From: Botryllus schlosseri
Taxonomy: Eukaryota
Length of the DNA: 64,000 bases
Assembly: GCA_051294905.1 (NCBI GenBank)
Contig: CM119371.1
Span: forward strand, 19,284,001-19,348,000
Direction of reading: 5' to 3'
Both the position numbers and the translations under genes were made by a program. Shown here piece by piece: positions 2,531 through 57,471 of this stretch. The notes below the pieces were generated by a model. That model searched no databases and had not been told where the DNA came from. It worked only from the letters and a program-made list of their open reading frames with translations. Numbering within the stretch: position 1 is the stretch's first letter; the number at the start of each line of letters is the position of its first letter.

Positions 2531-3697
2531 CAGGGGTCACCAACACGCGGCCCGCATGCCGCCCGCGACCTGATTTGAAATTTCTGAAGAGCGCTTAGTA
2601 AAGCATTTTGAAACACATGGTGAAATTGATTTCAGTTCAAACATATTGTTGTTGTTATTCCTGTGCCCAATGTCACTATTCCTTACCAGCTGATACGGCC
2701 TCGGCGATGGTAATATCATTCCGTGGGGGAAAATTTGCTGATATGAATTGGCATATTGCCTGGACGTGCAATCACCGACCACTGCCCAGACCAAGACGCT
2801 GAAAAAACTACTACGGACCCCCAAAAGACCAAGCTTTACGAGGAGATAGTTTTCCAGCAAGTACCGTGTGTATAGCTAACCAGCATATCGATTCTTTAGT
2901 CCAGCGGTGGCGAATCTGCGATAGTAGAAGGAAAATTATGCGGCCATCGACACTTATTTTGAATAGGATGTGTTGGCGGCCGTCAATATTCAAATTGAAT
3001 TATGAATCGATTCCCTAATTATTCAGAAGTTTGAAGTATTCCTGAAATTTTCTTCGCGCCGCGCGCGATTCAGTGCGAGTTGACTTTCGATATTTGTATT
3101 GTAGCGTACTTTGTAATCTGAGCCCCACAGTACAGATGCGAACTGCAGAGGAAAATGATGCTCCCCATAAATAAATACCAATTTGTAATCTAGGTCTCCT
3201 CACCACAACGGAAATTTGTTTCTGGTAGTTGTTTGGGCGAATCCAATATCTTCCCACTATATCGACAATCCTGATGAGATGTCGAGAAACAACAGCATGC
3301 AACAACGGGGTCTAATAACAATTGGCCAACCCAACGATGCAGCACAGCATTCTAATAACTTCCCTAACGTTTCGAAAACGCCCCCTGCATCAATTCCACC
3401 AATGAATATGATCACATGGACTGAGAAAGGATGAATATTTGATAGTAATATGTGATACGATACTAATACTAACGACGAAATTCACTCAAGAATATGGATA
3501 CGGATCCTGGTACTTCATAACATGGCTACTCACGATTTGCCCGCCGTCCATGTTAGCATTGTACTGACGTATAGTTATCAAACCGTGGCTGTTATACAGC
3601 GTTGCCTATTTTTATCTCAATATTGAAGTTATGCGGCCCGCGGCCTCGACGAATTCTGAAAAGTTGCCCACGACCCATTTTGAGTTGGCGAACCCTG
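2531..3697. mobile_element. hAT-type non-autonomous DNA transposon (MITE)
   Basis: Termini CAGGGGTCACCAAC / GTTGGCGAACCCTG, subterminal GCGGCCCGC motifs, perfect 8-bp TSD ATGTAACG (2523-2530, 3698-3705). Confidence 0.85.
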
Positions 3698-4590
3698 ATG
3701 TAACGTAACCAATCTTCTGATAGTCTCAACTAAGGGGGAATTGACATTTTCTATTTCTTGCGAATTCTTTAAATCCTGGTTATAAATTGGTGGGATGGAG
3801 TCGAAGGCAGTAGTGAAGGTTTCACTGAAAATACTTTATACTAATACAGATCAGAAATTTATTCTGTATAAAGATCATGTTTGATAATGGTGACTCGCAG
3901 CTGCAACTATAGACCCAAGACATAACGAGAATTAGCACTGATATTTTTTTTGTTAATACACGATGATGGATTTCGATTTGTTAGAAAGCATGTACGGTAC
4001 TCAAGCTGGACGACAAATAGTGGTTGTTTAGGACCGATAAGTTGCGCGTGACGGAATGGTTTCTAGCATAGAATAATTAAACGGAAAGTTGCACGTGACG
4101 TTACCACCATTCCACTCTGGCTACCAAGCAAATACTTTGACAAATGAGGTTCGCATTAGGACCTTTGGCGGCTTGACACAGAGTGGAATTAGTGGCAACG
4201 TCATTAGTAATTTTCCAAGCAAATACTCAACTGTTCTATAAGCAAACAAGCAAGTAACTGTTCTATCGCATTTTTGTGGTGTATTGAACTGATAAAGTTG
4301 CTAATAAACCAATGATGATGATGATTAAAGAAACCCTTCTGTCACGCGAAATTTATTGTCTAAAATAGCCGCGGTTTCCGCGGTGAACGTTGGCTGTATT
4401 ATGAATATGTAACTAAATCACTCATCTGAAACCTGATTGGCTGACACGAACATGAATTTCTCTACAATACGTGATACAAACACCTTTTTGACTGTGAAAA
4501 GCACGTGAACACCTCCTCTTATAAGCTGCGCTTTCGCTTTTGTATCCTCGTAGGGAAATCCCCAAGCAGAGATGAGCGGGTTTGGAATTT

Positions 4591-4839
4591 GGAGAGAGAG
4601 ATATGATATTCTTTCTCGCCTGCACCATCGAGATGCTTTGGCGACGTAGTTGCGATACGGCCCCATGAGGTCATCTAGTCTGCGCCCCCGTTTTTTTTTC
4701 TCCTCCATGCTATCCGTGATTGCTGAGCGCCTAGCAGGATAGCTGCGGATACCATTTTTCGAATCTTTGGTATGCGGCCGGGGATCGAACCCACGACCTA
4801 CCGCTCGAGAAGCCGGACGCATAACCTGCACTATCTCGC
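4591..4839 (-). mobile_element. tRNA-derived SINE, family A
   Basis: Minus strand starts GCGAGATAGTGCAGGTT, has B-box GGTTCGATCCC, then a non-tRNA body and a (TC)n tail; homologous copy at 53023-53281. Confidence 0.8.
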
Positions 4840-4851
4840 AGGTACAGGATG

Positions 4852-5065
4852 GTATATTCATATTGAAATAAACCCGAATACTTTCGGCTGAAACTCGTCA
4901 GGGGTAATCGTCAGCAACTAGTAGAGAATTGGAAAGAACATTGTATATCAACAATCGTATCACAAAATATGACGTCATCAGCGTGAAATTTCGTGAATGA
5001 GAGAGCGTTCAATGTACTATTTTTAGGTGGTACACGAACTCCTTTTGTTGACAGAGTTTTGGTTG
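4852..5065 (-). mobile_element. Penelope-like element 3' end fragment
   Basis: Near-identical to the left arm of the 24.2-25.1 kb element; encodes ...QPKLCQQKEFVYHLKIVH* and carries the hammerhead motif. Confidence 0.8.
4872..4915 (-). ncRNA. Minimal type I hammerhead ribozyme
   Basis: Reverse complement reads GCTGACGATT ACCC CTGACGA GTTTCAGCC GAA AGTATT C GGGT: full CUGANGA/GAAA/UH core and stem I ACCC:GGGU. Confidence 0.75.
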
Positions 5066-5105
5066 GTGCTGGTGTTGGTGGATTTGGAATTTATATGTCC
5101 TAATC

Positions 5106-5785
5106 CAGTGGTTCCCAACCTTTTTCGTCTCGTGCCCCCCTTGGTCGATATTTGAGCTAAAATTCCACCCCTATTAAAAAATTGCCTGCGACTAAAAACA
5201 TGTGATTTTTAACGCGCAACCATTTGTTGACTGAGCAATTAATGACCGAACATATTCAGACATGTCCGAACCATGGCGAATGCGGACCGCACTAAAGTTT
5301 GGTGAAGTACAGTCAAATTTGACATGTTTTTGACCAGTCGGGTAGCCGCTTACGAAAAATAAATCACCAAGTCTGCTTGCTATGGGCTTGAGTTGAATCG
5401 ATGAATTTGGTATATTTTTCACGTCATCTCATATGTTGGCTTAAAAAGTTAAACAATTTCACTAGCGGCCTTGTGCTGAATTCGGCTTGACGTATTCCTG
5501 CTTAGCAGCGATTTGGTCGAGAGGCTGTCTCGGACCCAACAAAATTGTCTCGCGAGTCTCACTTTATCAGAGGGTGTAATATCTATGGAAGGCTTGAAAT
5601 CCGCCAAAGAAACATACAATTGTAAAGAACTAAATTCTACTTAACAGTTCTATACCATAAAAATCTGAAAACCTTGCAAACCCAGTGTATCTTCCGATAC
5701 AATGTCTTAGCCAGTTTCCCCCTAAAAAAATTAAGCCAGATTCCCCCCTAAAAATTCCAAAATCCCCCCCGGTTGGGAACCACTG
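5106..5785. mobile_element. hAT-type MITE
   Basis: TIR CAGTGGTTCCCAACC / GGTTGGGAACCACTG; TSD TCCTAATC / TGCTAATC (7 of 8 match). Confidence 0.8.
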
Positions 5786-6227
5786 TGCTAATCCAATCCA
5801 AATCCATGACTTTTGCATATTAAAATCCGCGTACTGTCCTAATCCGATTCTAACTTGAAATTTAGAAAAAATTATAATTAATGCAAGGAAGGAATTGGAA
5901 ATTTTCTTTCTCAGCCAACAATTCTCTTGCTTTAAGATAACTTAGCATAGGCTGCACCTCTTATGTTCATTGGCACCGAGTGTAACTCAGTGTAGTGTAC
6001 AAGTTCATTATTAACTGATCTGATAAAATTTCGTTGCCATTCGCCACTCGACATATCAATCTCTCGGAAAATCGGTAAATCCAATCTAAATCCTAATCCG
6101 TTCAGAGAAAATCTCTAATCCTAGTCCAATCCGAATCCGACAAAATCTCACAAATCCGTTTTTTAAAATCCTAATCTTAATCCATGCTCATCTCTGGTCC
6201 CCATACTCCCCAAAGACCCCACGTCAT

Positions 6228-6560
6228 CGGTGGTGTCCGGTCAACACCGAGAATGCTATTACCGAGAAGGACAATATCGAGAATGGACATTACCGAGAAT
6301 GGACAATACCGAGAATGGACATTACCGAGAATGGACACCACCGAGAATGGACATTACCGAGAATGCAATATATGCAATGCAGGCATGTTATGCATATGAA
6401 CAGGTCGTGTGTGTGCATCACGGCGTGGCCACATTCGGTATCGATTCTCAGGTATAAATTTCTCGACAACATCCGTCCCAGTAAGCTAGATTCTTGGCAT
6501 TGTCCGTTCTCGGTAATGTCCATTATAGGTAATAGCATTCTCGGTAATAGTATGGAACTA
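6228..6560. repeat. MITE-like element with tandem ~19-bp ACCGAGAATGGACA repeats and an inverted copy at the right end
   Basis: About 6 tandem units at 6245-6365; inverted units TTCTCGGTAAT at 6505-6550; related fragment at 15140-15200. Confidence 0.65.
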
Positions 6561-7630
6561 TATAAATTAAACATGTAACGGCAACGACCGATTTTGCAGC
6601 TTCGTTCCGCTTCGCCGAGGCTGGAGTAGAGAATTGTTTTGCGTAAGCGACTGTGGGATTTCTGGCAATCCAAAAGCTATCTTCCCGAGCACAGAAATTA
6701 TTGAATCTAGTCTTGATCGAAAGCTACAGTTGCACCGATTCCGGAGATATAAATTAAAATAATGATCAGGCACTGATCCACCTAGAATCAGTCCTCCAAG
6801 TCGGAAATATCGGCATTGTTCGAACAATCGGAGAGTCGCAACTGGTAATTGTTATGGCCATTGTGTTGCGGTTACCTGCCATTTCAAGCCATATTGCATT
6901 ACAAACAGAGGTGGTCAGTAACGAAGTACTTCTACTTTTTCGAAGTACTCAAGTAGTTTTCATCTACTCTGGTACTTTCGCTACTTCTACTTCATAATAT
7001 TTTGTGATCTACTTACTTACTTTTCGCTATTTTCAGTTGGTAAAGTAGAAGTACTTTAATCCTCCAATCAGGAAGACAGCCTGAGGAATTTCGGGGCTGT
7101 TTTCATGGAGTATCAACATTTAATTTTCATAAAAGTTGAGTAAAGCCCAGAATTTTCGTCGCGCATCGCGCTCAGTGGATACAGAGTTACCAGTATGATT
7201 TCACGAAAGTATCGGTGAATATAATTTAGGTAACGGGTTGGTGTGGTTCCGTTCACACCGCATTGTCGCCCTTCGCCCATACGAAATATTTCATCACAGT
7301 ATATATGGCTCATCATAACATTTGAAACTGATGTTTCGCAATCTAGCATTTACTTATCATATCATAATCTAGCAGACCATGGCGCGTCCTAATCTGGAAA
7401 GGTGGACTCCAACTTTTTTTTAGTTTCAGAGCTGTTTTAGCATACCACCTTTGAAACTTTCTGGTCTAAAGACATGGAATACATTTTCCGCTTTCAGAAG
7501 TAGTATTTATATTTCGCTTTCAATTCCCAGTATGATATACTCAGAGGTGGTCAGTAACGAAGTACTTCTACTTTTTCCAAACACTCAAGTAGTTTTCCTC
7601 TACTTCTGATACTTACTCAAGTAGATCTTT

Positions 7631-9123
7631 AATATGTATCATTATATACCCAGATACAAGCCCTATAATTCTCATCAAAAATTATTGCGGGTTTGTTAGT
7701 CTGGAAGGTGATATAGAAAAATATATATGTCGATCCAAATTCACTTTTCACCCCCTAAAATGTAAATCATTTGTCAAAGACCACATAACTCACGCAGGTC
7801 GAAGTTTTTTGCATGTGAGGAAAGATTCTGCCAACATGCTATTGTAGACGAAGTCGCGTACAGTAATCATGGGATTATCACAGAGAATTTTTCAAGTATA
7901 TTTTCGGTCCCAGTGTCTCATCGGTACCACATCTCCCCTACATGCACGCAGAGAGATAGTGACCGAGACCCTAGCGTCAACACTCAACATAGATGTGATG
8001 AACCGGGAAGGATTGTTCAAAGAGTATAAAAAAATTTCTGGCATCATTTACGTCTCCTGATTTATTAAAAGAGAAGTGTTGATAAGGGTGATTGTGTGAG
8101 CAACTAAGTCATTGCATATAGCAGGGGCGGGCAACATACGGCCCACGGGCCTTATCCGGCCCGCGAACAGTTTTTCGTCTTACATGATAATGTGGCCCGC
8201 GGCCCCAGATTGCCGATATTCTCCACTACTTGCTTACTACACCAAATTTTAGTGACTGTATGTTATTATATACGTGTATGCGCAGCGTTGCGAGAGTGGA
8301 GGTCAGGCATAAGTTAGTCGAAGCGGGAAGACTTGCATTATCGGCATTTACGATGCACTCAACCCTATTGTCGTCTGTGGTAATCATGATTTTACTACAA
8401 TGGTCATTTACACCAGGCTGATATTTCTATTTTTGATTCCGTAACCGCCGACTTGTAGCACGGCACGCTTCTACGCTTTTGTAAGGCACCGCTTATTCCA
8501 GGAGTCGCCAACTCAAGACGGCTCGCAGTCCACTTTTCAAATTTCGTAGAGGACGCGGGCCGCATGAATTCAATATCGAGATTAATTAGGCCACACAGTT
8601 GAACAACGACGCTATCTCGTCACCTACTCAACCCTAACGAATTGATAACTTGGTAAATTAGGGTTACCGGGCTTATCGAACGCCTTGAAATCTTAAATTA
8701 GGGATTGCACCGTGTGTTGATTGATCAGAGAGAAGCAGACATGGCGACATGGCGGGCGCCTGTATGACAATGTTATTCTCAAATCCACATTGTCGTCGCC
8801 ATTATCGGCGAGAAATGGCATTGAAGTGACATTGCTGCCGTTAAAATACATTCATCAAGTACGATTTATTCCTTGTCTATGTGGATAAATGGGCGAATAA
8901 TGCATCGAATCAGCAATCCGACCCGGCAAGTAGGCCTACCTAATTTTCCTATATCTCGCCCGCCGACTGGAGAAGTTGCCTGCCCCTGTTTTAGGGGGTG
9001 CAAAGTGAATTTGGATCGACATATACATTTTTCTATATCACCTTCCAGACTAACAAACCCGCAATAATTTTTGATGAGAATTATAGGGCTTGTATCTGGG
9101 TAGGCTATATAATGATACATATT
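7631..9123. mobile_element. Element with ~130-bp inverted repeats, containing a hAT-like MITE (8122-8988)
   Basis: 7631-7760 is the reverse complement of 8989-9123; internal CAGGGGCGGGCAAC / GTTGCCTGCCCCTG termini, TSD not matched. Confidence 0.65.
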
Positions 9124-11375: not shown

Positions 11376-13103
11376 TCAAATTTTGACACCAACATGAATA
11401 CCAAGATGCCTATTCAATTTGGATTTGAAAATAAATCCTTTTCCACAAACATCACATTCATGCCTTTTGATACCAACATGGATAGCCATGTGCCTTTCAA
11501 GGTTCTCCTTTCCAGGTAATTCTTTACCACATACATCACATTTATGAATTTCGATACCCGCGTGCAAACGAAGATGTCTATTTAAGTTCTCTTTCAAAGT
11601 ATATCTTTTCAGACAAAAACCGCATTCATGGCTTCTGACACTAGCATGCACAGCCATGTGTTTCTTGAGGCAACCTTTTCGTAGAAATTCTTTTCCACAA
11701 ACATCACATGTATGGGTTTTGACACCAGCATGAATATCCAAGTGATGATTGAGATTACCTATATGCTTGAAATCTTTCCCACAAACTTTGCATTCATACT
11801 TTTTGACGTTGAAATGCATCTTTAAATGGGACTTGAGGCCACTTCTTCGGACGAAGTCTTTTCCACACACATCACATCTATAGCTGTTACCACTAGCATG
11901 CACAGCCATATGTTCCCTTACGCCCATATTTTGTCTGAATTCCATCCCACAAACATCGCATTTATATTTTTTGATGTCCGAGTGCAGCGCCATGTGCGAC
12001 TTGAGGTAATCCTTTGTCAATAATTCTTTTCCACAAACGTCACATTTGCAGCCACCCGCATGCACCGTCATATGTGAATGGAGGCCACCTCGTTGCGCGA
12101 ATTCTTTTCCACAAACATCACATATATAATTCTTGACAGCATTATGTATATCCTTGTGAGCGATTAGATTTCTTTTATCAGTAAACTTTCTCCCGCAAAT
12201 CTCACAGCTATGCTCCTTGACACCGACATGCATAGCCATGTGACTTCTCAAGTTTTTTTTTAGCACAAATTCTTTTCCACAAACATCACATTTGCAGGTT
12301 ATAAAAGTAGAATGCACTGACATATGTAGACGGAGGCCCGCCCTTTGAGCAAATTCTTCCCCACAAACATCACATTTATAATTCTTGACATCCCAATGAA
12401 TATTCATGTGATCTTTTAGCTTGCTCCTGTTAGTAAATCCTTTCCCACAAACATCACAACTATGATTCGTGACACCAACATGTATAGCCATGTGACTCGT
12501 CAACTTTCCTTTTCGCCCAAATTTATACCCACAAACTTCACACATATACCTTTTAACGCCAGCACGCATATCTGTATGTAGCTCGAATCCATGGTTTTGT
12601 GCGAGGTCTGTTCCAAAAACATGACATTTATCATCCTCATCCTTGACACAAGAATGCATCTCTGTGTGTAAATTGAGGTCACCCTTCCGAGTACATTCTT
12701 TTCCACGACGATCACAGCTTGCCACTCCACCATGTATACTTTTATGAATATTGAGGATGCACTTTCCAATGCCTTCATCACGACGAATGTCGCATTGTTG
12801 ATATTTTGCTGCACCATCTTCGTAAGGATCTTTCAAATTTGTGTTAGAATCAATTGAGAGTGACTCGCCGTACATCTCGATACAGACTGTTTGGTAACAG
12901 AGGAGGTCACAAACGAGTTCAATCCAATGATGAAGTGCAAATCGTTTATTACGGACGTGTTGATGAATAGGCTGATAATATCTGGTGTTAAAAAGCCTGG
13001 CATAAAAATCATCGTCAGATTCAAGCAACCCAATATTTTCAACCGAGAAATTACGTACTGTAGATATGGATTTGACGTAAACAAAATTGAAGCCCACATT
13101 CAT
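11376..13103 (-). CDS. Tandem C2H2 zinc-finger protein (14 intact fingers plus degenerate N-terminal fingers)
   Basis: 575-aa ORF with repeated CxxC-x12-HxxxH units. The start may be the ATG at 12875 (MYGESLSIDS), which aligns with the paralog's MDGESFSIDS. Confidence 0.92.
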   Translation of the reverse strand: MNVGFNFVYVKSISTVRNFSVENIGLLESDDDFYARLFNTRYYQPIHQHVRNKRFALHHWIELVCDLLCYQTVCIEMYGESLSIDSNTNLKDPYEDGAAKYQQCDIRRDEGIGKCILNIHKSIHGGVASCDRRGKECTRKGDLNLHTEMHSCVKDEDDKCHVFGTDLAQNHGFELHTDMRAGVKRYMCEVCGYKFGRKGKLTSHMAIHVGVTNHSCDVCGKGFTNRSKLKDHMNIHWDVKNYKCDVCGEEFAQRAGLRLHMSVHSTFITCKCDVCGKEFVLKKNLRSHMAMHVGVKEHSCEICGRKFTDKRNLIAHKDIHNAVKNYICDVCGKEFAQRGGLHSHMTVHAGGCKCDVCGKELLTKDYLKSHMALHSDIKKYKCDVCGMEFRQNMGVREHMAVHASGNSYRCDVCGKDFVRRSGLKSHLKMHFNVKKYECKVCGKDFKHIGNLNHHLDIHAGVKTHTCDVCGKEFLRKGCLKKHMAVHASVRSHECGFCLKRYTLKENLNRHLRLHAGIEIHKCDVCGKELPGKENLERHMAIHVGIKRHECDVCGKGFIFKSKLNRHLGIHVGVKI

Positions 13104-14589
13104 TACTTATAGAAACCTGTGCTAGTATTTGCATAATTAGAATACTGTTGTTGCCTATCGTTAACCACACAATAATGCCGGCTCCTAACACTGTTAACTC
13201 ACACACGTTCGTGAAAACTATATATATGAGTTAATCCTTTTTCGAACAATTTAATTTCTTGATTGGGTCAACATGTCACCACCTCATGTATCTTATGTTA
13301 TATAATATGGGTTGCTTTATGTTGAGTACATGCATGTTAAATTCAAGAGCCTAGTGCAGTATCCTGCTATTTCACCGACCTAAAATCAATGTGAATCCCT
13401 GCGCATTGGTCTATACCAGACTTAGGCGAACTACACCCCGCAGGCCGCATGTGCCCCGTTATAACATTTTTGCAGTCCGCGAAATCCCCAATTAACTTAT
13501 AAAAGACAGTAATAAATGCTTAGCAAGAATTAAATTACTGCAGCAATTTGAACAAGATTTCTCCTAATATATTTCATCATGATATTGAAAGGTTTTTGTT
13601 GTTAAACATTCCAGAAAGTCAAAACCGTAAACGACTTTAATCGGATCATATGCATGGGATTTTGTATTGGCGACAGCTTCGCGCCCCCTTCAGATGCTCT
13701 CATGCCTACCAAGGGGGGTGTGCCAACCAGTTTGAGCGCCACTGATCTAATGGAAATTGTATCAATCCCGTACCATATGCACGACAAAATTACATTCGCA
13801 GTACATGAATAGTTATGTTTTAGTATACGATGTCATTCTGTTTTGCTATGTAACTGTTGAACAATCATGGCATAACGGTCGCTAATTATTAAACAATTAG
13901 CGGCATTGTCTCCAAGTCTAAACGAGAGTAGAGAGCAGCCAAAGCCTGCGACGCGATAGTTCAGGCCAGCGACACGACATCTTGCACACGAGGCCTATTA
14001 CAGATGCGACTGCTCAAGCCAACGGTTATATCGTGCGCACCAGGCCTGCTGGAGATGTGACTGATTACGCCAGCGATTATATCTTGAGCACATGGCGTGT
14101 TGTTGATGCGATAGTCCGTTCGGGCCTATCATTGACGCGAAGAATTAGCGGGGACTGCCACGCGCGTGTAGAGCCGTCAATGACCTAATTTAGCTCGTGT
14201 ACAGACTACGGTGGCTCAGCAGGAGATCACATCAGACTTGACAACTAGATAATTCAATAATGCAATATCGAGACAAGATAGGCCACACAGTTGAGCAATC
14301 CCGTTTTTACAACTTTACGTATGTACAATGCGATGGTCACTAACATGGGCGATGGGCATGGTTATTACAAAAGAAGTAATATTTTATTATAGAAGTACAA
14401 CAACAAATAGCATGATCATGAACAGGCCGTGTGTAGGTGACCACTGGTATAGTGCAAAACAAGTCAAGCTTGGTGTACATACGTAAACCATTCTAATGCT
14501 CATCAGAAAGCATTGTGATTTAATATGAACCTAACTTGATTTTGCTGTATTTCTATCTCATGCACAATTTCATTCAATTTCGACGTTGT

Positions 14590-16800: not shown

Positions 16801-17359
16801 CATAGTGTCCTAAATGGTGTCGACACAAGCAGATCTCACGGCTCAGTGAAATTGATTCACGTCACAATTTCCATTCGGCTACAGGCAATTTGACGGTCAT
16901 TTTTGACCGGCTTGCCGAGCATTAAATTTGGTAAAACGGATATCAATAGAAAGCTGACTCTGCACTGATTACGAAAATATAAATTTTATTCCGCTCGTGG
17001 CCCTGGAACTCCCACAATCAGCCTCGAATTTTTCATTGTTATGGAGATTGGCATTTGGATGCAACAATGTTGTCTGGCGAAACGAGAGAGTAGCTCAGAA
17101 CGCAACAATGCTGTCTGGCAAAACGAGAGAGTAGCTCAAGAGAAAAAGAGCCACACAGCATTGTTGCGTCCCAATGCCAATCTCCATAACAATGAAAAAT
17201 TTGAGGCTGATTGTGGGAGTTCCAGGGCCACGAGCGGAATAAAATTTATATTTTCGTAATCAGTGCAGAGTCAGCTTTCGATTGATACCCGTTTTACCAA
17301 ATTTAATGCTCGGCAAACTGGTCAAAAATGACCGTCAAATTGCCTGCATCCAAATGGAA
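16801..17359. mobile_element. Foldback MITE with long TIRs (CATAGTG-terminus family)
   Basis: ~16869-17078 is the reverse complement of ~17150-17359; the same 5' end CATAGTGTCCTA also occurs at 48347 and 49288, and a diverged version at 25141. Confidence 0.8.
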
Positions 17360-24000: not shown

Positions 24001-24241
24001 TTCTTCTCTGTGTGGTATTATCATTTGTGTATTATTATTATTATCCTCATCATTATTGGGTTGGAGATTTATAAGAATAATCTCATTCTAAAAGCTCCAA
24101 TCTCCACGTCCAGTACTGGCAAGTCGGTTTCTGCTGTCGGTATCTGAAACTTTGGTACGGCACTGAAACCATTATTTGAAGAGCTTCTTGGAGGTACAGA
24201 ACTTCAATATACAATTAAATAGTATATTCATATTGAAATGA

Positions 24242-24285
24242 ACCCGAATATTTTCGGCTGACACTCGTCAGGGGTAATCGTCAGC
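24242..24285 (-). ncRNA. Minimal type I hammerhead ribozyme
   Basis: Reverse complement reads GCTGACGATT ACCC CTGACGA GTGTCAGCC GAA AATATT C GGGT. Confidence 0.8.
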
Positions 24286-25018
24286 AACTAGTAGAGAATT
24301 GGAAAGAACATTGTATATCAACAATCGTATCACAAAATATGACGTCACCAGCATGAAATTTCGAATGAGAGAGCGTTCAATGTACTATTTTTAGGTGATA
24401 CACGAACTCCTTTTGTTGACAGAGTTTTGGTTGATGTATTTTGATAAAAGTTGATTCCAAGGCACACAAATGGAATTGTGAACGGCCTCGACCTACGATT
24501 CGAAATCGGTCGTCTCGATAATTATTCGCACAAATCGGATTATCCAACAGATGTTTGCCGATGGCAGAATTAATGGCCTTTGATCGATCAGCATCAATCT
24601 TAAGTGGATGAGTTAAGGGTGAGCTTTTCACATCGCGTGATCAGAACACGTGCGTCACGCGATGTGAAAAGCTCACCCTTAACTCATCCACTTAAGATTG
24701 ATGCTGATCGATCAAAGGCCATTAATTCTGCCATCGGCAAACATCTGTTGGATAATCCGATTTGTGCGAATAATTGTCGAGACGACCGATTTCGAATCGT
24801 AGGTCGAGGCCGTTCACAATTCCATTTGTGTGCCTTGGAATCAACTTTTATCAAAATACATCAACCAAAACTCTGTCAACAAAAGGAGTTCGTGTATCAC
24901 CTAAAAATAGTACATTGAACGCTCTCTCATTCGAAATTTCATGCTGGTGACCAGTGACGTCATATTTTGTGATACGATTGTTGATATATACAATGTTCTT
25001 TCCAATTCTCTACTAGTT

Positions 25019-25062
25019 GCTGACGATTACCCCTGATGAGTGTCAGCCGAAAATATTCGGGT
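25019..25062 (+). ncRNA. Minimal type I hammerhead ribozyme
   Basis: GCTGACGATT ACCC CTGATGA GTGTCAGCC GAA AATATT C GGGT: canonical core and palindromic stem III AAUAUU; predicted cleavage after C25058. Confidence 0.8.
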
Positions 25063-25140
25063 TCATTTCAATATGAATATACTATTTAATTGAAACCATT
25101 ATGTTCTATCAAATATAAGTGGGGAAGGGCAACGTCGAAC

Positions 25141-32510: not shown

Positions 32511-33204
32511 GTAATCCAACCCTCATTTCACGATACCCGACTACAAAATGCTCATGGGGAACACTGCTTCTTGATGTTCAAGTTGTTATGAACCCGGTGA
32601 AAATACCGTATTGTATGTAACTAACGCTTACTTGCCGTTGGTTAGGTCGAAGACCCGTAGATGAGCTCTGAAATCTGCGACCGCCGCGGATGCAGTGAAA
32701 AGATATCTGGCCAGTGCCCACTGCCCATATACCGTAGTTGAGCGCATTATTCAAATTTCGCCGATTGATTCGCTTTCTTACTGCATCAAGCACACGCGAA
32801 TCTCTCTTGTAGAGCTGGACGTAATTTTCTTTCTGGTATTTCACCAAAGCACTTGCCAAGTCTTCGTAAGAGGCAAAATCTCGAGGAATCCATGCTGCAT
32901 TTACGGCTCACAGTTCCGGAAATCTACGTACCCATTCTGCAGTTACGGCGTGCTTACGCCGGACGAATAGCCTGAGGAACTTAATTCGTCCGGTACCGGA
33001 CGAGTAGACACTTCCTAATCTAATAGCAACGTGTATCTTTGTTTCTTAGACGGCTCAGTGCTAACATTGCGGATGCGCTCATCTTTACGAACCATGTTGT
33101 TTGATATAAATCGAACGAATATAGTTTACGAGTTTATATTCTCACGCATGTCTATAGTTGGGCAGTGTGTCACATCAATTCCTTCAACTTGTCGAGGATT
33201 CGTA

Positions 33205-36200
33205 AGTAGTATAGTAGATCGGTCGTGAGCGGCCATTGGTTCTTACGGGCCCGCTCGTGAGGTGCCGCGAAACTCGTGTTGGTGATGGCACCCTTTAGAC
33301 CCCCTTCCGCTGGTGAGATGCCATGTGTTCTTATGGGATCTCTGGTGATGGTACCCTTTCAGGTATAGGCTGCGTCGGTGATGTGCCGTGAAAACTCGTG
33401 TTGGTGATGGTACCCTTTCAGACCCCCTATCGCTCGTGATGTGCCATTGTTTCTTACGGGATCTCTGGTGATGTGCCATTGGTTCTTATGGGATCTCTGG
33501 TGATGTGCCATTGTTTCTTATGGAATCTCTGGTGACGGCACCCTTTCAGGTATAGGCTGTAGCGATGATGTGCCCACGGATTCTTGTCTCGTAGTGAACT
33601 AATGTTGTTGGTATAGGTTGCGGTCATGAGGTGATGTTGATTACGAAGTATATTGATCACGTGATTGATCCTTAGTTATTGTGTATACCCCAAATTATTA
33701 TATATGAGCGATTCGAGTTATTCCTAACGTTTACGATGATTGCGACTTGAATACATCGTTATTCTTATGGACGCGGCGGTGATTCGTACTTTCGGGTATA
33801 GACTGCGTCGGTATGTCGTACTTTCAGCGAAAAAGGTGCGAAATAGTTTGCTAAATCTAGGAATCAGTCGCATGGTAATGTTTTGGTAATTAGTTTGCCA
33901 CAGAACCGGCGTAGACGGCGATTCGAATATCAACAATAACCACAATAACCACGCTCACAAACTAACACTTCAAAAAGGTGTGAAATAGGTTACAAATCCC
34001 GCGATCGCTCACAAGATAATACCTAAGACATAACCATCGCTCGCGATTTGCTGTTACATACATTCCAATCACTCACGAGGTACTATTTTGGTAATTATAG
34101 TTTGTCGCAGAACTGGATTTCACTGGTAAGACTTAATATGTAACGAATAACCGAACCGTTGCAGACGGTGATTCGAATACCGACAAATTCTCACTTATTT
34201 TCTGATCCAACCCTAATCCTTTGCGTTGTTGGCGCTTATTCAACAAGGTGTGAAATAATTGTAAAATCCTACGTCGCTGACACGATAATGCATCATGCAT
34301 AGCGATCTAGTTAAAGTACGGTGTCGGAATCCATTCGCGAGATGTTCTATAGGTAAATTGAGATAATCCGAAACGAAATATTTTGACTTTGGCGTAGTGT
34401 GAATTGAAATAGGATTGACAAACATGACTACCAACTTTCCCACAGTCCCATTTCGATATTATACGCACATTGATTTGAAACAAGTAATGAAACATTGCAA
34501 CTCTTCGCGATCCGGCTTTCCGTTTGTCAAAGAGACATTTTAACATCTTACCATACTCAAAAGAATTATTCACAACATTAACCGGTGTTACAAATCTAGT
34601 TTTCACTTACTTGATTATATCACTACAACTCGCAAACTCGAATTGATTCATCTGGTTGTATTCATATGACCGATAATTTTATCCAACTGTAAAGGTCATT
34701 ATACTATTCTGTAAGACAGAGTATTTACTAATCGGTGCATATACGACTTGACATAAACATATTATATTTTGAGTATACGAGATTTGAATGTCTGAACAAT
34801 AACTGAGAAATAATTTATCGCAATTAAATCCGCATATTATAGTGTAAAATATATTGGAATGCCAGCAACTCTTTACGATCATAGTTACTACCGCATTAAC
34901 TAATTTACCCGGCCAACTCGTCATAATCATTCCTGAAATCAACACAAACATGGTCACTGACTTGAGTTAACCACAAGACAGCATCAAGTTTTAAATCCGC
35001 TTGTAGCTCTCGGATTATTCGCATGCATCGATAGACAATATTGTTGAACTCATGAGTATTCTATTTCAATGAAGTTTCGTTTTATACCGACTGCGAAAGT
35101 TAATATCGAATTGTAAGACTTGAAAAAAAAATCACATATTTGTTTGACGATAACACAGACATGACAAAAAACATAACCGAGATTTTATAAACTATAGTCA
35201 TATTACTCTACACATCTATCAATATCAGAATGCAAGTCGTCAAAATTTTTGTTTAAAGTAACATTTCACTTTTGGAATCGGATTCGTTATAGCCATACAA
35301 ATTACATTAAACCCAACACCAAAACAAAAGGACTTTTTACTTCATTAAAATCAAATCATTCGTCTTCGACTTGTGCTTTATTAGATTGCGCGCGACAGTT
35401 CGTTACGAATGAGCTGAAACCAAAGTTGAGAAATCTTTGTGTCCACAGATATAGAGCATGCATATAGCTAACACAATCACGAATCGGCGTTTCTGAGTAT
35501 TTCACGGAGGTAATAAACTTGTTAGTGTCACCTATCTAAAAGTATGCATGCGTTCGATTTCCATACCGCCTGTTGCGACGTTTAGGATTCGCTTACAATG
35601 ACCAAAAGTGAGGATTTAACATTAATGTCGTTACTGTTGGTATCCGCAACAGAGAATTGAAACATTACACAGTGTGAAAATATCTCTTTGATATCAAAGC
35701 ACTATCCCAAGTACACGATTAATACTCAACTTCGTTCACACTTTCTATAGAACGTGCTAAATGTAAAGTATCGCGAGGACTCTTTGATCATTACAAAAGT
35801 AAATTGGGATATGTTTGCTAGACGCATCCAATTCAACTAGAAATGTCTACTGCACAACACTCGTAATATCAAGGAAGTACTTGCTACACTGTAATTCACT
35901 AAACGTGTTTTGCATTGTTATTGATTTGTAGTATTGATTGAAATTGTTTTTGAACCCTCAAATAATAATAATTCCCGACATGAAACCAAGCCGCTGAAAG
36001 TCGTTGCCACCACAAAGAAACAATTTGCACGATGTTTATCAAATGTGTCCTATAGTTCGGTGTACTAGAATTATTTGTGTAACACATACACCGACAAAGA
36101 AATCGGAAATTTTTCCGTTGTCATTCGCGCGACTAAGAACATCATCGCTACAGCCTATACCTGAAAGGGTGCTGTCACCAGAGATCCCATAAGAAACAAT

Positions 36201-36506
36201 GGCACATCACCAGAGATCCCATAAGAACCAATGGCACATCACCAGAGATCCCGTAAGAAACAATGGCACATCACGAGCGATAGGGGGTCTGAAAGGGTAC
36301 CATCACCAACACGAGTTTTCACGGCACATCACCGACGCAACCTATACCTGAAAGGGTACCATCACCAGAGATCCCATAAGAACACATGGCACCTCACCAG
36401 CGGAAGGGGGGTCTAAAGGGTGCCATCACCAACACGAGTTTCGCGGCACCTCACCAGCGGGCCCGTAAGAACCAATGGCCGCTCACGACCGATCTACTAT
36501 ACTACT
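33205..36506. mobile_element. Non-autonomous Polinton/Maverick-like element
   Basis: ~367-bp TIRs (33205-33571, 36139-36506) starting AGTAGTATAGTAG and containing internal tandem repeats; perfect 6-bp TSD TTCGTA (33199-33204, 36507-36512). Confidence 0.78.
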
Positions 36507-38026
36507 TTCGTATTTGATCCTCTATATTGGCCGATAAAATCAGACTGTAGCATGTAACTATACAATTACTCGCGTATTTTATTAGCAGTTCTACGTTTGC
36601 ATGAGTGCTGCAACATCGTCTTGCATGTATATTTTACTTTATATTCGTTATTTGATTTCAGATAAATGGCCAATCCATCTGTCCTTAATCCAGTTAGCAA
36701 AATGTAATGATTTCTCATCGTCACTCATACTTCGAAAATTCAATTTGACTTGAATCGTGACTTTACTCGTGACTTGACTTGACTCGACTTGACTCGAGTC
36801 ACCTCCAAAAAACGAGTGACTTGACTTGACTCGAGTCACCTTTGAAAATTGATTGACTTGACTCGAGTCAAAATGTGCAATAACTCGAGATTACTCGTGA
36901 CTTGAAGGTAGTGACTTGATCCCAACACTGGTCGGTACTCACTTTAACCAGACCTCTTGTATGATTTAAATCGAATTTTAAGTTTATAAGTTTATTTTAC
37001 TCGCCAATCATCGGTGCAGACTTACATTGTATCTCACGGATGTGTATAGGCGGGCTCGTGTCAATTCGTTTTTGAAGATTCGTATTCTATTCTCTATTTT
37101 GGCTGATAATTCTAGACTGAATCGATACAGTTACATATACGCAGTTTAGCAGTCCTATGTATGCATGAGCGATACGACGCCTTTTCCGCGTTTACTTACC
37201 TCTATATTCACCCCACGATTCAAAATTAATGGCGACATTGAAACAGCTATCCAAATGCAATGCCTTAATTATGCCTCGTACTTTTAAAAATCAACTTGAC
37301 TTGAATTGTGACTTGACTCGTGACTTGACTTGACTTGACTTGACTCGAATTGACTCGAGTCATCTCCAAAAATCTAGTGACTTGACCTGACCCAAGTCAC
37401 TTTCAAGAATAGATTGACTTGACTTGACTCGAGTCAAAATGTGCACTGACTCGAGATGACTCGTGACTCGAAGGTACTGACTCGATCCCAACACTGATAC
37501 CCACAATGACCTGGGTCAATGTCAGGAATGGGTCTCTTACCTTCCGAGAACCTTATCGTAATATGAAATGGCTGGTCTGCGAAAAAAGGTGGTGGCCGGG
37601 GTGAATATTGCAGATCACCACCACCAATGCTCCACTAGACCACTGCTTTCTTGTAGGCCTGAGGGAAAGAAAAAAATTGAGGTTGCAAAGTTCGACATCA
37701 CATCCAAAGCACAAATTTGGAATGCGATCGACAATCGGTATGGTAGTAGGGAAAAGATTTGTCGTCTTTTGTTCGTCTTTTAGTAATAGATTACCTATCA
37801 GAAAAATAGACGCATGGAATTGTATTCAAAATAAAATTTAGGCAGGATTCGAATCGGATATTTGTAATATAGACACAAATTTGGAAATGCGATTTTTGGT
37901 AATTCCTATTTACATGTGATTACTTATAGAATCCGAGCTACTTTAAAATTTGGACTGGGATCTGAAGCCCGAACAATAGAACTGGGATTTCGACAAAATA
38001 ATTCACGTGCTAGCTATAGCTTGTAC

Positions 38027-42771: not shown

Positions 42772-44154
42772 TCAATTTTTGACATCAACATGAATACCAA
42801 GATGTCTATTCAATTTAGATTTCCAAATAAATCGTTTTCCACAAACATCGCATTTATGACTTTTGATACCAACATGCATAGCCATGTGTATTCTGAGGTT
42901 ATCCCTTCCTGTGAATTCTTTCCCACATACATCACATTTATGGATTTCGATACCAGCATGCAAACGAAGATGCCTATTCAAGTTTGATTTCAAAGTATAT
43001 CGTCTCCCACAAACACCGCATTCATGGTTTTTGACAATAGCATGCACAGCCATGTGTATCTTCAGGTCACCTTTTCGCATAAATTCTTTTCCACAAACAC
43101 CACATGTGTGGTTTTTTACACCAGCATGAATAGCCATGTGTTTGGTGAGGTTATCGTTATGCTTGAAATCTTTCCCACAAACATTGCACTTATAATTTTT
43201 GACGTTGAAATGCATCTTCATATGGGTATTGAGGTCACCTGTTCGGGCGAATTCTTTTCCACAAACATCACATTCATGACTTTTGCCACTAGCATGCACA
43301 GCCATATGACACCTTAGGCCCATATTTTGTCTGAATTCCATCCCACAAACATCGCATTTATAGTTTTTGATGTCAGCGTGCAGATCCATGTGTGACTTGA
43401 GGTAAACTTTTGCCGCGAATTCTTTTCCACAAACATCACATTTGCAGCTTTTACCACCGGCATGCACCGGCACATGTGAACGGAGGCCATCCAGTTGCAC
43501 GAATTCCTTCCCACAAACATCACATATATAATTTTTAACATCATTGTGAATATCCATGTGATTGTTTAGATTGCTGATATGAGCAAATGTTTTCCCGCAA
43601 ATGTCACATCCATGATTCTTGACATCGACATGCATAGTCATGTGATTCGTCAGGTTACTTTTTCGCACAAATTCTTTTCCACAAACATCACATTCATAGA
43701 TTCCAGCACTAGCATGCATAGCCATATGTAGCTTGAGGACTTGATTTTGCGTGAAATCTTTTCCACAAATACCACATTTATGATCCTTGACACCAGAATG
43801 CACGTCCATGTGTCTCTTGAGGTGACTCTTTCGAGCATATTCTTTTCCACAAACATCACATTTATGATTTTTGACCTCAAAATGCATATCCATGCGAGTC
43901 TTGAGGAGTCCATTCCGAGACAATTTTTTTCCACGAACATCACAGTTATAGCTTTTCACTTCGGCAGATTTAGCTTCATGAATATTGATGCTGCACTTTC
44001 TAATGCATTTATCACGGCGAATGTCGCATTGGTCATATTTTGCTTCATCATCTTTGCTCAGAACCTTCAACTTCGTGTTAGAATCAATTGAGAACGATTC
44101 CCCGTCCATCTCGATGCAGGTTGTTTGGAAACAGCGAAGCACAAACGAATTCAA
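42772..44154 (-). CDS. Tandem C2H2 zinc-finger protein (13 intact fingers), paralog of 11376-13103
   Basis: Open reading frame with repeated CxxC-x12-HxxxH units; first in-frame ATG at 44109 (MDGESFSIDS); flanks also homologous to the first paralog. Confidence 0.92.
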   Translation of the reverse strand: MNSFVLRCFQTTCIEMDGESFSIDSNTKLKVLSKDDEAKYDQCDIRRDKCIRKCSINIHEAKSAEVKSYNCDVRGKKLSRNGLLKTRMDMHFEVKNHKCDVCGKEYARKSHLKRHMDVHSGVKDHKCGICGKDFTQNQVLKLHMAMHASAGIYECDVCGKEFVRKSNLTNHMTMHVDVKNHGCDICGKTFAHISNLNNHMDIHNDVKNYICDVCGKEFVQLDGLRSHVPVHAGGKSCKCDVCGKEFAAKVYLKSHMDLHADIKNYKCDVCGMEFRQNMGLRCHMAVHASGKSHECDVCGKEFARTGDLNTHMKMHFNVKNYKCNVCGKDFKHNDNLTKHMAIHAGVKNHTCGVCGKEFMRKGDLKIHMAVHAIVKNHECGVCGRRYTLKSNLNRHLRLHAGIEIHKCDVCGKEFTGRDNLRIHMAMHVGIKSHKCDVCGKRFIWKSKLNRHLGIHVDVKN

Positions 44155-46012
44155 TAATGAAGTGAAAACGTTCGATTACAGATGTGTTGATGAATAGGCT
44201 AATAATATTTGGAGTTATAGCAGACTGGAATGAAAAAATCATCGTTAGATATCTGCAACCCAACATTCTTAACACAGTAATGACGCAAAATAAATATGTA
44301 TTTGACGTCAACAAACTTGAAGCCTACATACATTACACAAAAAAAAAATTTATAAGTAGAATACTATTGCTGTCTACAGAAGAATAACGGCTTCTAATAT
44401 CGTTATCTCAGTCTCATATATGATCCATATGTTGGTGAAAACGATATCAATGAGCTAATCCTTCTTTAACAATCTAGTGTTTAGAAAAATTCATACTCAC
44501 AAATTTAATATTGTGGTTGGGTCAACATGTCACAACCTCACATGTACCTTTATGTTATATCAAATGGGTTGCTTTTGCTGAGTAGATGCATGTTGAATTT
44601 AAGAGCATAGTTCAGTATCCCGCTATTTTACCTACCGAAATTCAATATGAGATCCCTGAGCATGGGTCTATACCAGTGGTTCTTACCCAATGTTCCATGG
44701 GACACTGGGGATTTCGTGGGCGTGAGGACAGTCCAATAATTATAGGATATTGATTTTTGAGAATCCGAATCCGTCCGACAGCTTGCGTGTCTGTGAAACT
44801 ATTCGTCCGAATCCAAAGAATCTGAACCAACTATAATACTATATCCGAAAATCTCGTCCAAAAATCCGTACAACTGAGCTGAGATACAGTTCTGCACTGG
44901 AATATCACTATAATTGTTTGGGATCGGGCATGTTATTTGTTATTCTTTATTTGATGACGTTTTTAGGGGAATCAGTTTCCAGTTCAATTGTCCTTTATTT
45001 CTATTTCGCTTTTCTAATCATTCTAATTGTCTGATTTCAATCCTAATTGTCAGGGTTGTAACCAAGTCACGAGGCCCCGAGTAACAAGTCAATCTCACTC
45101 TTGTAGTTTTGACTCGAGTCAAGTCGACTCATTTTCAATTCACCACCGAGTCAAGTCCGAGTCCAAGTCATCGAGCAGAGGGCCGAGTCATGGTATTATG
45201 ACTCGAGTCCAAGTCATTGTATTGACTGCTCAGTTTCTAGTTAAAGTCTTGTTAAACCCCCTGTATTACCTGTTTAGTGATATCGAATGGTTCGCATTTA
45301 CAATATACTAATTTTCCCCATTTTTAGCAGTTTCTGGTCGCATTTTCAAGTACCAGTATCAACAGACGAAATCCCAATATTGTGATTACTTTACTATTCC
45401 TTGAAATTATAATGAAATGCCGGTCTTGGTCGTCTGTGTCTCGAGTCCTAAGACTTGGTTCGAGGCATGCGCAATAGGGTTGTCCAAAATTTGGAAAATC
45501 TTGAAAATACTCCGTGATTGTGTCTCATTCTATAGATTATTCATAAAAAACAACAATGAGCCTGAAAGAAGCTCATAGGAAAGCCGATAAGATTTCGGGC
45601 AAAGCGTTTGAAAGTAGCTGCCCAATAATGGGCGTGCCACCGACCATAGAACGGCGAGAAGACTAGTAACCAAATAACCACGGCTCTTGATTGACTAATC
45701 GGCTATGCTTCAATGATCACGACAGCAGCAGCTGGCTGATTAGGTGTTCAGCGAGTCTGCTACCGGCGGGGATTCTTAAAGCGCATAGGTAGTTGGTTGG
45801 CAGATGATGATTTAAGAATAATTCGGGACATGTTTAGGTACGAAATACATGATGAACAAACAACAACTGCTTCACAAAATCTTTTACAGCATGACTGCTT
45901 TATTGTGAAGGAAACTGCTGTAGCCTACATGTCGTGTTTTCATCGAGGGAAAGCAAAGGCGCTTATGCAAGTGGTGAACGAATACCTCGTTTCAGAAGCG
46001 ATCCATCATCAG

Positions 46013-46565
46013 TGAATACAAATATAAAGCATAACTATGACACTATACTTTGTGTGATCTTATTGGGCTCAAGCTGTAGAATATAGGTGACGTTTTGAAT
46101 GCTATAGGGATCGGCTGAATCAGCGGGTTATGCTTGGCACTTATCAGATGCTTACAGCAGATTGAATTCACTTGTAAGTGTTCTCAAAGTCCCTAATGAT
46201 AACGCAGAAGAGAGGTGTAGATGTACGCACAGGCTATGCTGGATATGGTATGTCAAAGTCCTTATTGATCCCGCAGAAAAGAGATGTAAAGAAAAGCACA
46301 GACTATGCTGCATAGTATCCAGCATAGTTTGGATATCATATCCAGTATAGTCTGTGCTTACTTTACACCTCTTTTCTGCATCATCATCAAGGATTTTGAC
46401 AACACTTACAAGTTATTTCAATCTGCAGTAAGTATAACTGCCAAGCATAACCGGCCGATTCAGTCGATCCCTAGAGCATTCAAAACTCCAACTATATACT
46501 ACAATTTGGGTCCAATGAGATCACACAAAATATAGTGTCATAGTCAAGCTTTATATCTGTATCAT
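46013..46565. mobile_element. Foldback/palindromic MITE
   Basis: Left ~230 bp is the imperfect reverse complement of the right ~230 bp (e.g. ACTATGACACTATA / TATAGTGTCATAGT). Confidence 0.75.
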
Positions 46566-56345: not shown

Positions 56346-57471
56346 GTCAACTGTCTTCGGCAGGTGCAATAATACCTCGAGTAGGATTTTTTGAGATCCA
56401 AATTTTAACATAACAGGCGAAAACATGATCCGACTTTAATCAGGATTCCATTTATCGATCAGCAGTGGATTGGTATTGGAAAAACCATATATCTGTCCAT
56501 AGCCAAGTGCCGAGTTCACTGGCAACCGCCTTTATAAGAGATAGATCTCTATGAAATTGATTTTCGAACGCTCTGGTTCAATTGACATCTGATTGACAGG
56601 TACGAACCCAACTTTTGATAAAAAATTGACTGGGGCTACGAAGTTGAAGTGAATAAAGTTGATCATATCGCTACTCGCTAGGTCAGGGCCATCAGGAGCA
56701 ATATAAATATATACCTACAACAGTCTACCGCTTAAGATAAGATACATACATATCTTACAAGCACCTATATATATATTTCTTTTTGTGTTATGTTACTTTC
56801 GGGAATACTCAATACTGCACTTCGAAATAAAAGCACCAAAGATTAGGAGTTTTAATTGAAGTACTGCGATCCTATAACAATGGAAAATTTCCTAAAATTG
56901 TTTTCATCGCTTTCTGCATCCCATTTGAAATTCACTACCACGATAGTTATACAGTTCATAAAGTGATTTATTCCCACTTTGCTTTCAAATGTCGAATTAT
57001 ATGGTATATTACTATCATTACACTTTGGGCCACAGTGCACATACGATATGTATAGATTTAGTGTAAAAAGTATGAGTTCCTTATACAGCCATGCTTTTTT
57101 CATGGGCGTCCGTCTGCAATACTTTCCACATTCTGACATTCTCATAATAATGCGGTTAATCTAACGCCGTTGCCGCACTTTTCGGGTCTTTTTCGTAAAT
57201 GTTGGGCTATCCTATTCATCTATCACCCAAGTAAATCCCGTTTTACTTTCAAATGACGAATTCTATTGCTTCAATAGCACTATATCGGTACATATTTGAT
57301 TAGAAGAATTAGGCCTACCGCCGCTACCGGTATATTTTATTGACATGTAATACCTTACCCTGGTAAGTCCTACATTACTTTCAAATGACGAATTCTATTG
57401 TTGTCAACTTGTCATAGCGCTGCAGTTACAGTGTACAGATTCTATCAATATTGATTTAAAGGAATGCTGAG

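Follow-up and report, generated by a model that had tools for sequence, protein, structure and literature searches.

The hammerhead motif and the locus

The window, by which we mean the whole 64,000-nucleotide stretch of Botryllus schlosseri DNA that was analysed, carries three copies of a hammerhead motif, at 4872, 24242 and 25019. The copies at 24242 and 25019 are the arms of one inverted, 5'-truncated insertion of a Penelope-like element (PLE) with a 12-bp duplication, a relationship that was omitted from the preliminary description of this DNA. The features, with the motif at 25019-25062 resolved into its parts, are as follows.

4849..5068, minus strand: separate short 3' fragment of the same family
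4872-4915, minus strand: third hammerhead copy, carried by that fragment
24164..24175, plus strand: 12-bp target-site duplication, left copy
24176..24655, minus strand: left arm of the inverted insertion
24176-24212, minus strand: extra tail of about 37 nt on the left arm, corresponding to the start of the next ORF
24242-24285, minus strand: second hammerhead copy, within the left arm
24640..25090, plus strand: right arm of the inverted, 5'-truncated PLE insertion, ending about 32-34 nt past the cut site
24640..24918, plus strand: coding part of the right arm, its translation matching the C terminus of the full ORF
25019..25024, plus strand: pseudoknot 5' arm, pairing with loop II bases 25042-25047 (from sequence and covariation) and ending 8 nt before C3
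25025..25028, plus strand: linker, an extension of stem I in some families (extension pairs formed in 58.6% of cells)
25029..25032, plus strand: stem I 5' strand, 93.9% of cells paired, with two-sided change at three of the four pairs
25033..25039, plus strand: catalytic core C3-A9, with N7 a U in this copy and a C in most
25040..25048, plus strand: single-pair stem II (G10.1-C11.1) and 7-nt loop II, G:C in 12 of 12 family representatives
25049..25058, plus strand: G12-A15.1, palindromic stem III and C17, stem III 94.3% paired, with two-sided change at the centre pair
25059..25062, plus strand: stem I 3' strand, forming 4 bp with 25029-25032 (from sequence and alignment)
25073..25090, plus strand: start codon and first codons of the next unit, cut off by the element end and matching the tandem junction of loci L040 and L042
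25091..25102, plus strand: 12-bp target-site duplication, right copy

The preliminary description had read a complete core, a 4-bp stem I, a one-bp stem II and a palindromic stem III from the letters, and all of these are present. In the copy at 25019-25062 the closing pair of stem II is formed by G10.1 (25040) and C11.1 (25048), and the last six bases of loop II (25042-25047) form the 3' side of the pseudoknot and complement the arm upstream of stem I exactly, as had been claimed. G12-A15.1 occupies 25049-25052, the six-base palindrome 25052-25057 and C17 position 25058, and by the established hammerhead numbering the cut is predicted to fall between 25058 and 25059. The core segments C3-A9, G12-A15.1 and U16.1-H17 are all present, and the stems of the three-helix junction covary, with stems I and III paired as listed above and the stem II pair formed in 100% of cells. 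The 7-base core by itself occurs in the window at chance level (33 matches, 29.7 expected). The three copies differ within the motif only at N7, at one loop II base and at position 15.2 (A to G), as originally reported; the loop II change, found in the 4872 copy, breaks the sixth pseudoknot pair. These are near-identical transposon copies and not independent evidence of conservation, which is supplied by the diverged families described below. In both arms of the insertion the 5' truncation falls within the endonuclease domain, as judged from the translation, and the extra tail of the left arm has no counterpart on the right arm.

A search against hammerhead models had been proposed as a check, and it did not recover the motif: Rfam hammerhead models gave no match in the window at E<=1, and among 13 loci one gave a weak match to RF03152 (22.6 bits, against a gathering cut-off of 56.3). 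Rfam microRNA matches at 24597-24698 were rejected as due to the perfect inversion hairpin of the PLE insertion. The upstream arm was also considered as a second, shifted catalytic core and was discarded, as the most that could be drawn for it was a stem I of three pairs, two of them G-U, with stem II lacking. Taken with the covariation and the context given below, the motif at 25019-25062 is confirmed at the sequence level as a hammerhead of type I, with cleavage predicted, and its host as a young retrotransposon of the Penelope/Poseidon type, in whose terminal repeat it lies.

Elsewhere in the window, other long inverted repeats (33198-33571 with 36139-36513; 16869-17359; 7647-9102; 46016-46562) resemble DNA-transposon or MITE ends, two related C2H2 zinc-finger array exons lie at 11376-13106 and 42772-44175 (both minus strand), and an unbroken 694-codon frame at 57460-59544 (plus strand) has the ABC membrane and ATPase domains of an apparently intronless half transporter.

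The host element

A search of the 495-Mb assembly with the 26-base core of the family gave 4,456 exact matches (2,244 + 2,212), against 0 + 0 for the reversed control. With a 161-nt query, the best 40 of 1,362 first-look candidates were scored, nearly all at 96-100% identity, and the family ribozyme was found on both strands in 19 of 30 loci obtained with this query. Longer copies continue into an ORF with RT and GIY-YIG motifs, and a protein search of the genome (best 87 of 9,034 candidates) recovered frames open over 860 codons, and units that follow one another head to tail at intervals of 2,692 nt. In these units the ribozyme lies between the stop codon of one and the start codon of the next. 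The predicted cut is 14 nt upstream of the ATG of an 848-aa RT and GIY-YIG protein, and this position bears out the proposal that the hammerhead belongs to a PLE.

The 848-aa protein matches RVT_1 (E 7.8e-9), while a PDB sequence search returned one weak RT match (E 0.0008). Alignment with its relatives places the invariant PLE residues at D270-K271, C731, C733, H752 and H791; the GIY-YIG domain of family A was identified by motif, Pfam PF01541 having matched only the relatives P0012 and P0087. The diagnostics of Penelope/Poseidon EN+ elements given in the available text of PMC8557442 were found: a single ORF with RT and C-terminal GIY-YIG, DKG, CCHH and the lack of a CxxC linker finger. Tandem units, a 30-40-nt tail and inverted, 5'-truncated copies, the last arranged as that text describes for PLEs, are further traits of this type. 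The Penelope/Poseidon-type label was given by motifs and architecture, the RT tree described below holding unnamed loci only.

Several related loci were encountered during these searches. A family B tandem of three units with a period of 2,778 nt is found at L100 (G000 C1 22,034,530-22,040,111), with an open 849-aa ORF 59% identical to family A, and at L014:3-2866 (minus strand) a PLE insertion lies within frames that by eye resemble LINE endonuclease and RT. Many full-length relatives among P0001-P0120 are on contigs of 2.6-3.3 kb, about one unit, which could be either collapsed tandems or circular RNAs. Nineteen loci (L218-L236) of prokaryotic metagenome-assembled genomes also hold PLE proteins, most likely through eukaryotic contamination.

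Covariation between the upstream arm and loop II

Covariation across genomic copies had been named as a check of the pseudoknot. A looser pattern for other families gave 4,728 forward matches against 96 in the control (the reverse-strand count repeats the same sites), a second looser pattern 1,125 against 0 and a U3-core pattern 1,785 against 116. Sixty sites, picked by eye for varied loops among the first 100 matches listed per pattern, were cut out, and variant counts refer to these first 100 matches per pattern and to small cut-outs. The 29 rows of alignment A2 are 27 of the first 40 loci together with two of the three window copies. Excluded from it are L062, L066, L085, L099 and L100 as near-duplicates, L069, L070 and L095, in which the arm pairs in full but stands one base further off, L067 and L073, where the arm region is lost, and L063, L075 and L077 as probable chance matches.

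In A2 the helix between the arm and loop II is 87.4% paired over 174 cells, with two-sided change in 21 cells and a covariation of 0.398, compared with 0.231 +/- 0.028 in shuffled alignments; none of 500 shuffles was as high, and slid registers of the pseudoknot gave 7-36% pairing. Two-sided change occurs at four of the six pairs, a number equalled by 117 of 500 shuffles. In a further set, all 20 loci of the U3 pattern plus the window copy, pairing of the pseudoknot was 71.2% versus 59.9% (0 of 500 shuffles), even though this set is unfiltered and includes decayed and likely chance rows. The core itself covaries from C3-G8 to U3-A8 in high-copy families, at least three of which (G000 C1, e.g. 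L237, L241 and L242) have the U3-A8 core with the pseudoknot in the same register and in other sequences. As a negative control, 24 chance pattern matches in viral contigs had 41% pairing of the pseudoknot, with 250 of 500 shuffles as high. Viral contigs were rejected as a source of hammerheads, since their 38 pattern matches (24 distinct) had stem I and pseudoknot pairing not above shuffles. A genome search for families combining the common two-base stem III with a short G...C loop gave 17 + 16 matches against 15 + 14 in the control, and thus revealed no such family.

Distribution of the one-pair form

With a profile built from 40 proteins, 79 loci were retrieved from metagenomes and 19 from genome collections. 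Eleven of these, in four families at about 47-64% identity, have a one-pair stem II with a 6-7-nt loop, and the loop of each family's best copy complements an arm that ends 8, 8, 9 or 11 nt before position 3. The arm and loop sequences of these other-host families differ from family A at up to five of the six pairs. Several further copies have decayed loops or cores, and three close loci (L149, L166, L185) contain too little downstream DNA for the motif to be read. Loci at 28-40% identity that have a motif carry the ordinary bulge and a helix II of 4-7 bp, and in many distant loci no motif was found in the available stretch.

Twelve family representatives were compared, eight families from the genome and four from other hosts. 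The pseudoknot is 81.7% paired among them, with 0 of 500 shuffles as high, although the families are related by descent and the shuffle counts are to be read as support for the helix and not as p-values. In all twelve G10.1-C11.1 is kept as the only pair of helix II, and G10.1 follows A9 directly, with no bulge. Three of the rows, which are out of register, were scored as they fell; by eye they are fully paired, with different sequences. The nine in-register representatives have two-sided changes at five of six pairs, the sixth counted change being due to a row that is misaligned. Every catalytic position is retained among families with 47-59% protein identity, and change at the 3-8 pair is compensated; free variation of the core positions, which had been proposed as a refuting outcome, was not seen. 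One other-host family (L140, L141, L145, L151, L163, L208) has U3 opposite G8, a wobble at this core pair, and U at 17 in every readable copy. Just past the cut site of L157, the model of the histone 3' stem-loop is matched below threshold at 1319-1365 (E 0.00022) and at 1385-1420 (E 0.92), which may be due to chance.

In an RT tree of 34 rows, midpoint rooted and with labels assigned by eye (L233 was dropped as too short), a 100/100 branch separates the 13 rows with one-pair stem II from the 21 long-helix rows, among which they are nested. By these sequence comparisons the one-pair, pseudoknotted form marks one PLE clade, and more distant PLEs have the published long helix II; the long-helix-II PLE hammerheads were checked for such pairing by a rough scan only. 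The alignments support the view that the helix between arm and loop II is real and accompanies the one-pair stem II across the whole clade.

Relation to known hammerheads

The motif shares much with the minimal hammerheads of PLEs. It is of type I, it lies in the pLTR of an element with RT and GIY-YIG that has thousands of dispersed truncated copies, and it has a short palindromic stem III, a conserved G10.1-C11.1 and U3-A8 variants. In contrast to that type, it has no bulge, a helix II of 1 bp and a covarying 5-6-bp pseudoknot. Fig. S3 in the available material of PMC4209133 shows a bulge after A9 and a helix II of 3-8 bp in 56 of 56 representatives, and the accessible text of reviews from 2017 and 2020 describes PLE motifs as devoid of tertiary interactions (PMC6155905, PMC7761336). 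Of the Cervera 2014 consensus, the pLTR position and palindromic helix III are seen here, and the bulge, the multi-pair helix II and the lack of a tertiary contact are not. The preliminary description had named the motif a minimal PLE hammerhead; the published type has a long helix II, and the motif at 25019-25062 departs from it.

The single G10.1-C11.1 pair and the 6-bp knot that serves as helix II are shared with the pseudoknot (PK, RAGATH-1) hammerhead RF03152. In that ribozyme, as the available text of PMC11300833 describes it, an extra hairpin with an A-minor linker, helix IV, offers its loop as the partner strand, whereas here the partner is the 5' leader, the palindromic stem III is of the dimer type and the host retrotransposon is of the animal type. 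No helix IV hairpin was evident in the computed folds, and the flanks vary between families. About 40% of hammerheads, of all three types, use a pseudoknot between stems I and II according to the available part of Perreault et al. 2011 (PMC3088659), where one case has a one-pair stem II and a 6-bp knot, like the motif here. The case tested in that part, unlike ours, is of type II and metagenomic, and highly repetitive type I hammerheads were outside its stem-length analysis.

Among described elements, Anolis carolinensis Poseidon (PAc) resembles ours in several respects, as far as the available text of Frangieh et al. 2024 (PMC11167929) goes: its hammerhead is at the junction of pLTR and ORF, two downstream RT start sites give a 30-40-nt tail, and targets are AT-rich. 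The PAc cut falls 26 nt inside the ORF versus 14 nt upstream of it here, and no pseudoknot is mentioned in that text.

Evidence bearing on cleavage

Among the indexed sequencing runs no RNA run was listed as containing the sequence. In four raw RNA runs carrying the same species label, of which 3-6% each was sampled and 2,483-7,049 reads were mapped, there was no pile-up of read ends and no dip in depth at the cut site on either strand. The reads fall mainly in the terminal 250 nt, on both strands, 68-98% continue into other sequence, and the 5' half of the ORF is almost bare; most derive from lone copies within other transcripts. This pattern fits silent lone copies and gives no support for cleavage in vivo. 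Integrated copies extend 28-76 nt beyond the cut site: not one of the 87 copies mapped in L001-L060 stops at the cut; the ends of 44 lie at +28 to +40 and those of 33 at +62 to +76, and the other 10 continue into a tandem unit. These loci partly overlap, and the query used to select the first 30 extends to +34, which biases the count to long ends. Since no copy ends at the cut, the RNA that was copied there was either uncut or re-joined. The two classes of 3' end match the two RT start sites of the anole element as given in the available text of PMC11167929, and according to the same text the anole ribozyme in vitro needed the protein of the element and was dispensable for insertion. Computed energies also weigh against easy cleavage, with the self-duplex of the family A palindrome at -0.2 kcal/mol, compared with -4.3 for that of other families, and with G12-A14 paired to cleavage-site bases in a competing hairpin in the fold of the window monomer.

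Proposed mechanism and alternative explanations

We consider it probable that a type I hammerhead at the junction of PLE units, with a pseudoknot replacing helix II, cleaves tandem transcripts into 2,692-nt units. The position of the ribozyme between successive Penelope/Poseidon-type units is evident from context, and helix II is reduced to G10.1-C11.1, its place being taken by a 6-bp helix between loop II and a single-stranded arm, whose pairing the covariation shows. This helix would keep stem I parallel to stem II, as it does in the crystal structure of the pseudoknot hammerhead. The computed folds suggest that the arm occupies a loop II otherwise free to pair with the core, and the energies favour pairing of the arm with loop II once it is transcribed (duplex -8.1 kcal/mol versus -4.8 for the core). 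Stem III is presumably too short to close within one copy, and thus two copies in a tandem transcript would pair through the palindrome, as in PLE and newt hammerheads, perhaps assisted by the protein of the element. Cleavage would release 2,692-nt units starting 14 nt upstream of the start codon, and the thousands of lone truncated copies, including the three in the window, would be passive 3' remnants that should rarely cut. In the available account of PMC11300833, a hammerhead in which a 6-bp pseudoknot and the single G10.1-C11.1 pair stand in for helix II is active and has been crystallised. The accessible part of PMC3088659 reports that breaking such knots costs 20- to over 100-fold, and that in a ribozyme with one-pair stem II disruption of the knot gives a more than 100-fold loss; dimer cleavage through a short palindromic stem III is described in the available text of PMC4209133. 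The earlier suggestion that the pseudoknot compensates for the vestigial stem II holds insofar as the helix covaries and goes with the one-pair stem II, and its effect on the rate is a prediction.

That the fold is real but slow or dependent on protein, and is selected as a structured signal beside the start codon and not for routine processing, we regard as unlikely; protein loading, translation start and RT positioning would be candidate roles. It would account for copies that extend past the cut, for RNA reads without a cut and for the family with U3 and G8. It also has precedents in the available texts: the anole PLE hammerhead cleaved only when protein was present, its mutants spared insertion and no reads ended at the cut (PMC11167929), and fungal-virus hammerheads with a helix II of 0-2 bp are slow and lie just before ORFs (PMC13725137). 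Yet all catalytic positions are kept at 47-59% protein identity with compensation at 3-8, which fits selection on catalysis, and the palindrome is kept through two-sided change. It is improbable that the helix between arm and loop acts instead as an off-switch, a hairpin formed first in transcription that blocks the active fold until opened. Folding free of pseudoknots does give this hairpin in five of nine sequences, at probabilities of 0.68-0.96, and in the plus-strand copy of the window the computed hairpin extends onto U7-A9, but a folding program that excludes pseudoknots draws the helix nested by construction. Moreover, stem I covaries alongside the helix, the spacing to the core is nearly fixed (mostly 8 nt, with 9 and 11 in two) as for a tertiary contact, and without this helix stem II would be one pair only.

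We give very little credence to the view that the complementarity is a by-product, in which the arm is akin to a core duplicate shifted by 13 nt and loop II pairs with the core, as an inhibitory hairpin, or with nothing. In family A the arm and the core do begin with nearly identical bases, both matching the core pattern, and in computed folds loop II turns onto the core when the arm is removed, while family C prefers the loop-core fold (0.94). However, pairing of loop II with the core was discarded as a real helix for lack of covariation: in A2 it is 71.3% paired with no two-sided changes and 436 of 500 shuffles as high, and in the 12 representatives it is 64.8% paired with 44 of 500 as high. 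The loop of families E, F and H and of L157 has diverged from the core, and the arm has followed it. Cleavage at tandem junctions by the pseudoknotted hammerhead remains the reading we prefer. A stronger form of it, which we put forward tentatively and hold with low confidence, is that the PLE clade swapped the long helix II for a pseudoknot and regained a fast, dimer-gated hammerhead that would cut tandems efficiently 10-21 nt before the start codon. Unit-length RNAs would then be re-joined into circles or translated without a cap, and lone copies would be silent.

Significance

PLE hammerheads, dimer cleavage and pseudoknot hammerheads are each already known. Lünse et al. are said to have published a large survey of PLE-linked hammerhead variants in 2017, which lay outside the scope of the literature search in which we did not find the combination in print. 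A pseudoknotted PLE hammerhead is absent from the available parts of PMC6765202, PMC10085705, PMC13725137, PMC7936874 and PMC7229834, of the supplement text of PMC8557442, and of a 2026 bioRxiv preprint (10.64898/2026.07.22.740005). The findings suggest that the fold of one pair plus pseudoknot arose again in animal retroelements, apart from the RAGATH-1 type. The form is missed by the Rfam models and probably also by descriptors that specify a multi-pair helix II, and thus thousands of copies per genome can be missed.

Overall the interpretation offered in the preliminary description is partly supported: the motif is real and its structure well supported by the sequence comparisons, and enzyme activity is predicted. 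The available texts of PMC4209133, PMC6155905 and PMC7761336 describe what PLE hammerheads do as unknown and tie the poor activity of these ribozymes in vitro to missing tertiary contacts. Should cleavage be only slow, the present motif would be a modest structural variant. Should it prove fast and dimer-gated, a real tertiary contact would for the first time be known in a PLE ribozyme, and there would be a clean handle on the role of the hammerhead in these elements. In either case the clade, with its covarying pseudoknot, natural compensatory variants and young intact elements, provides a ready test set.
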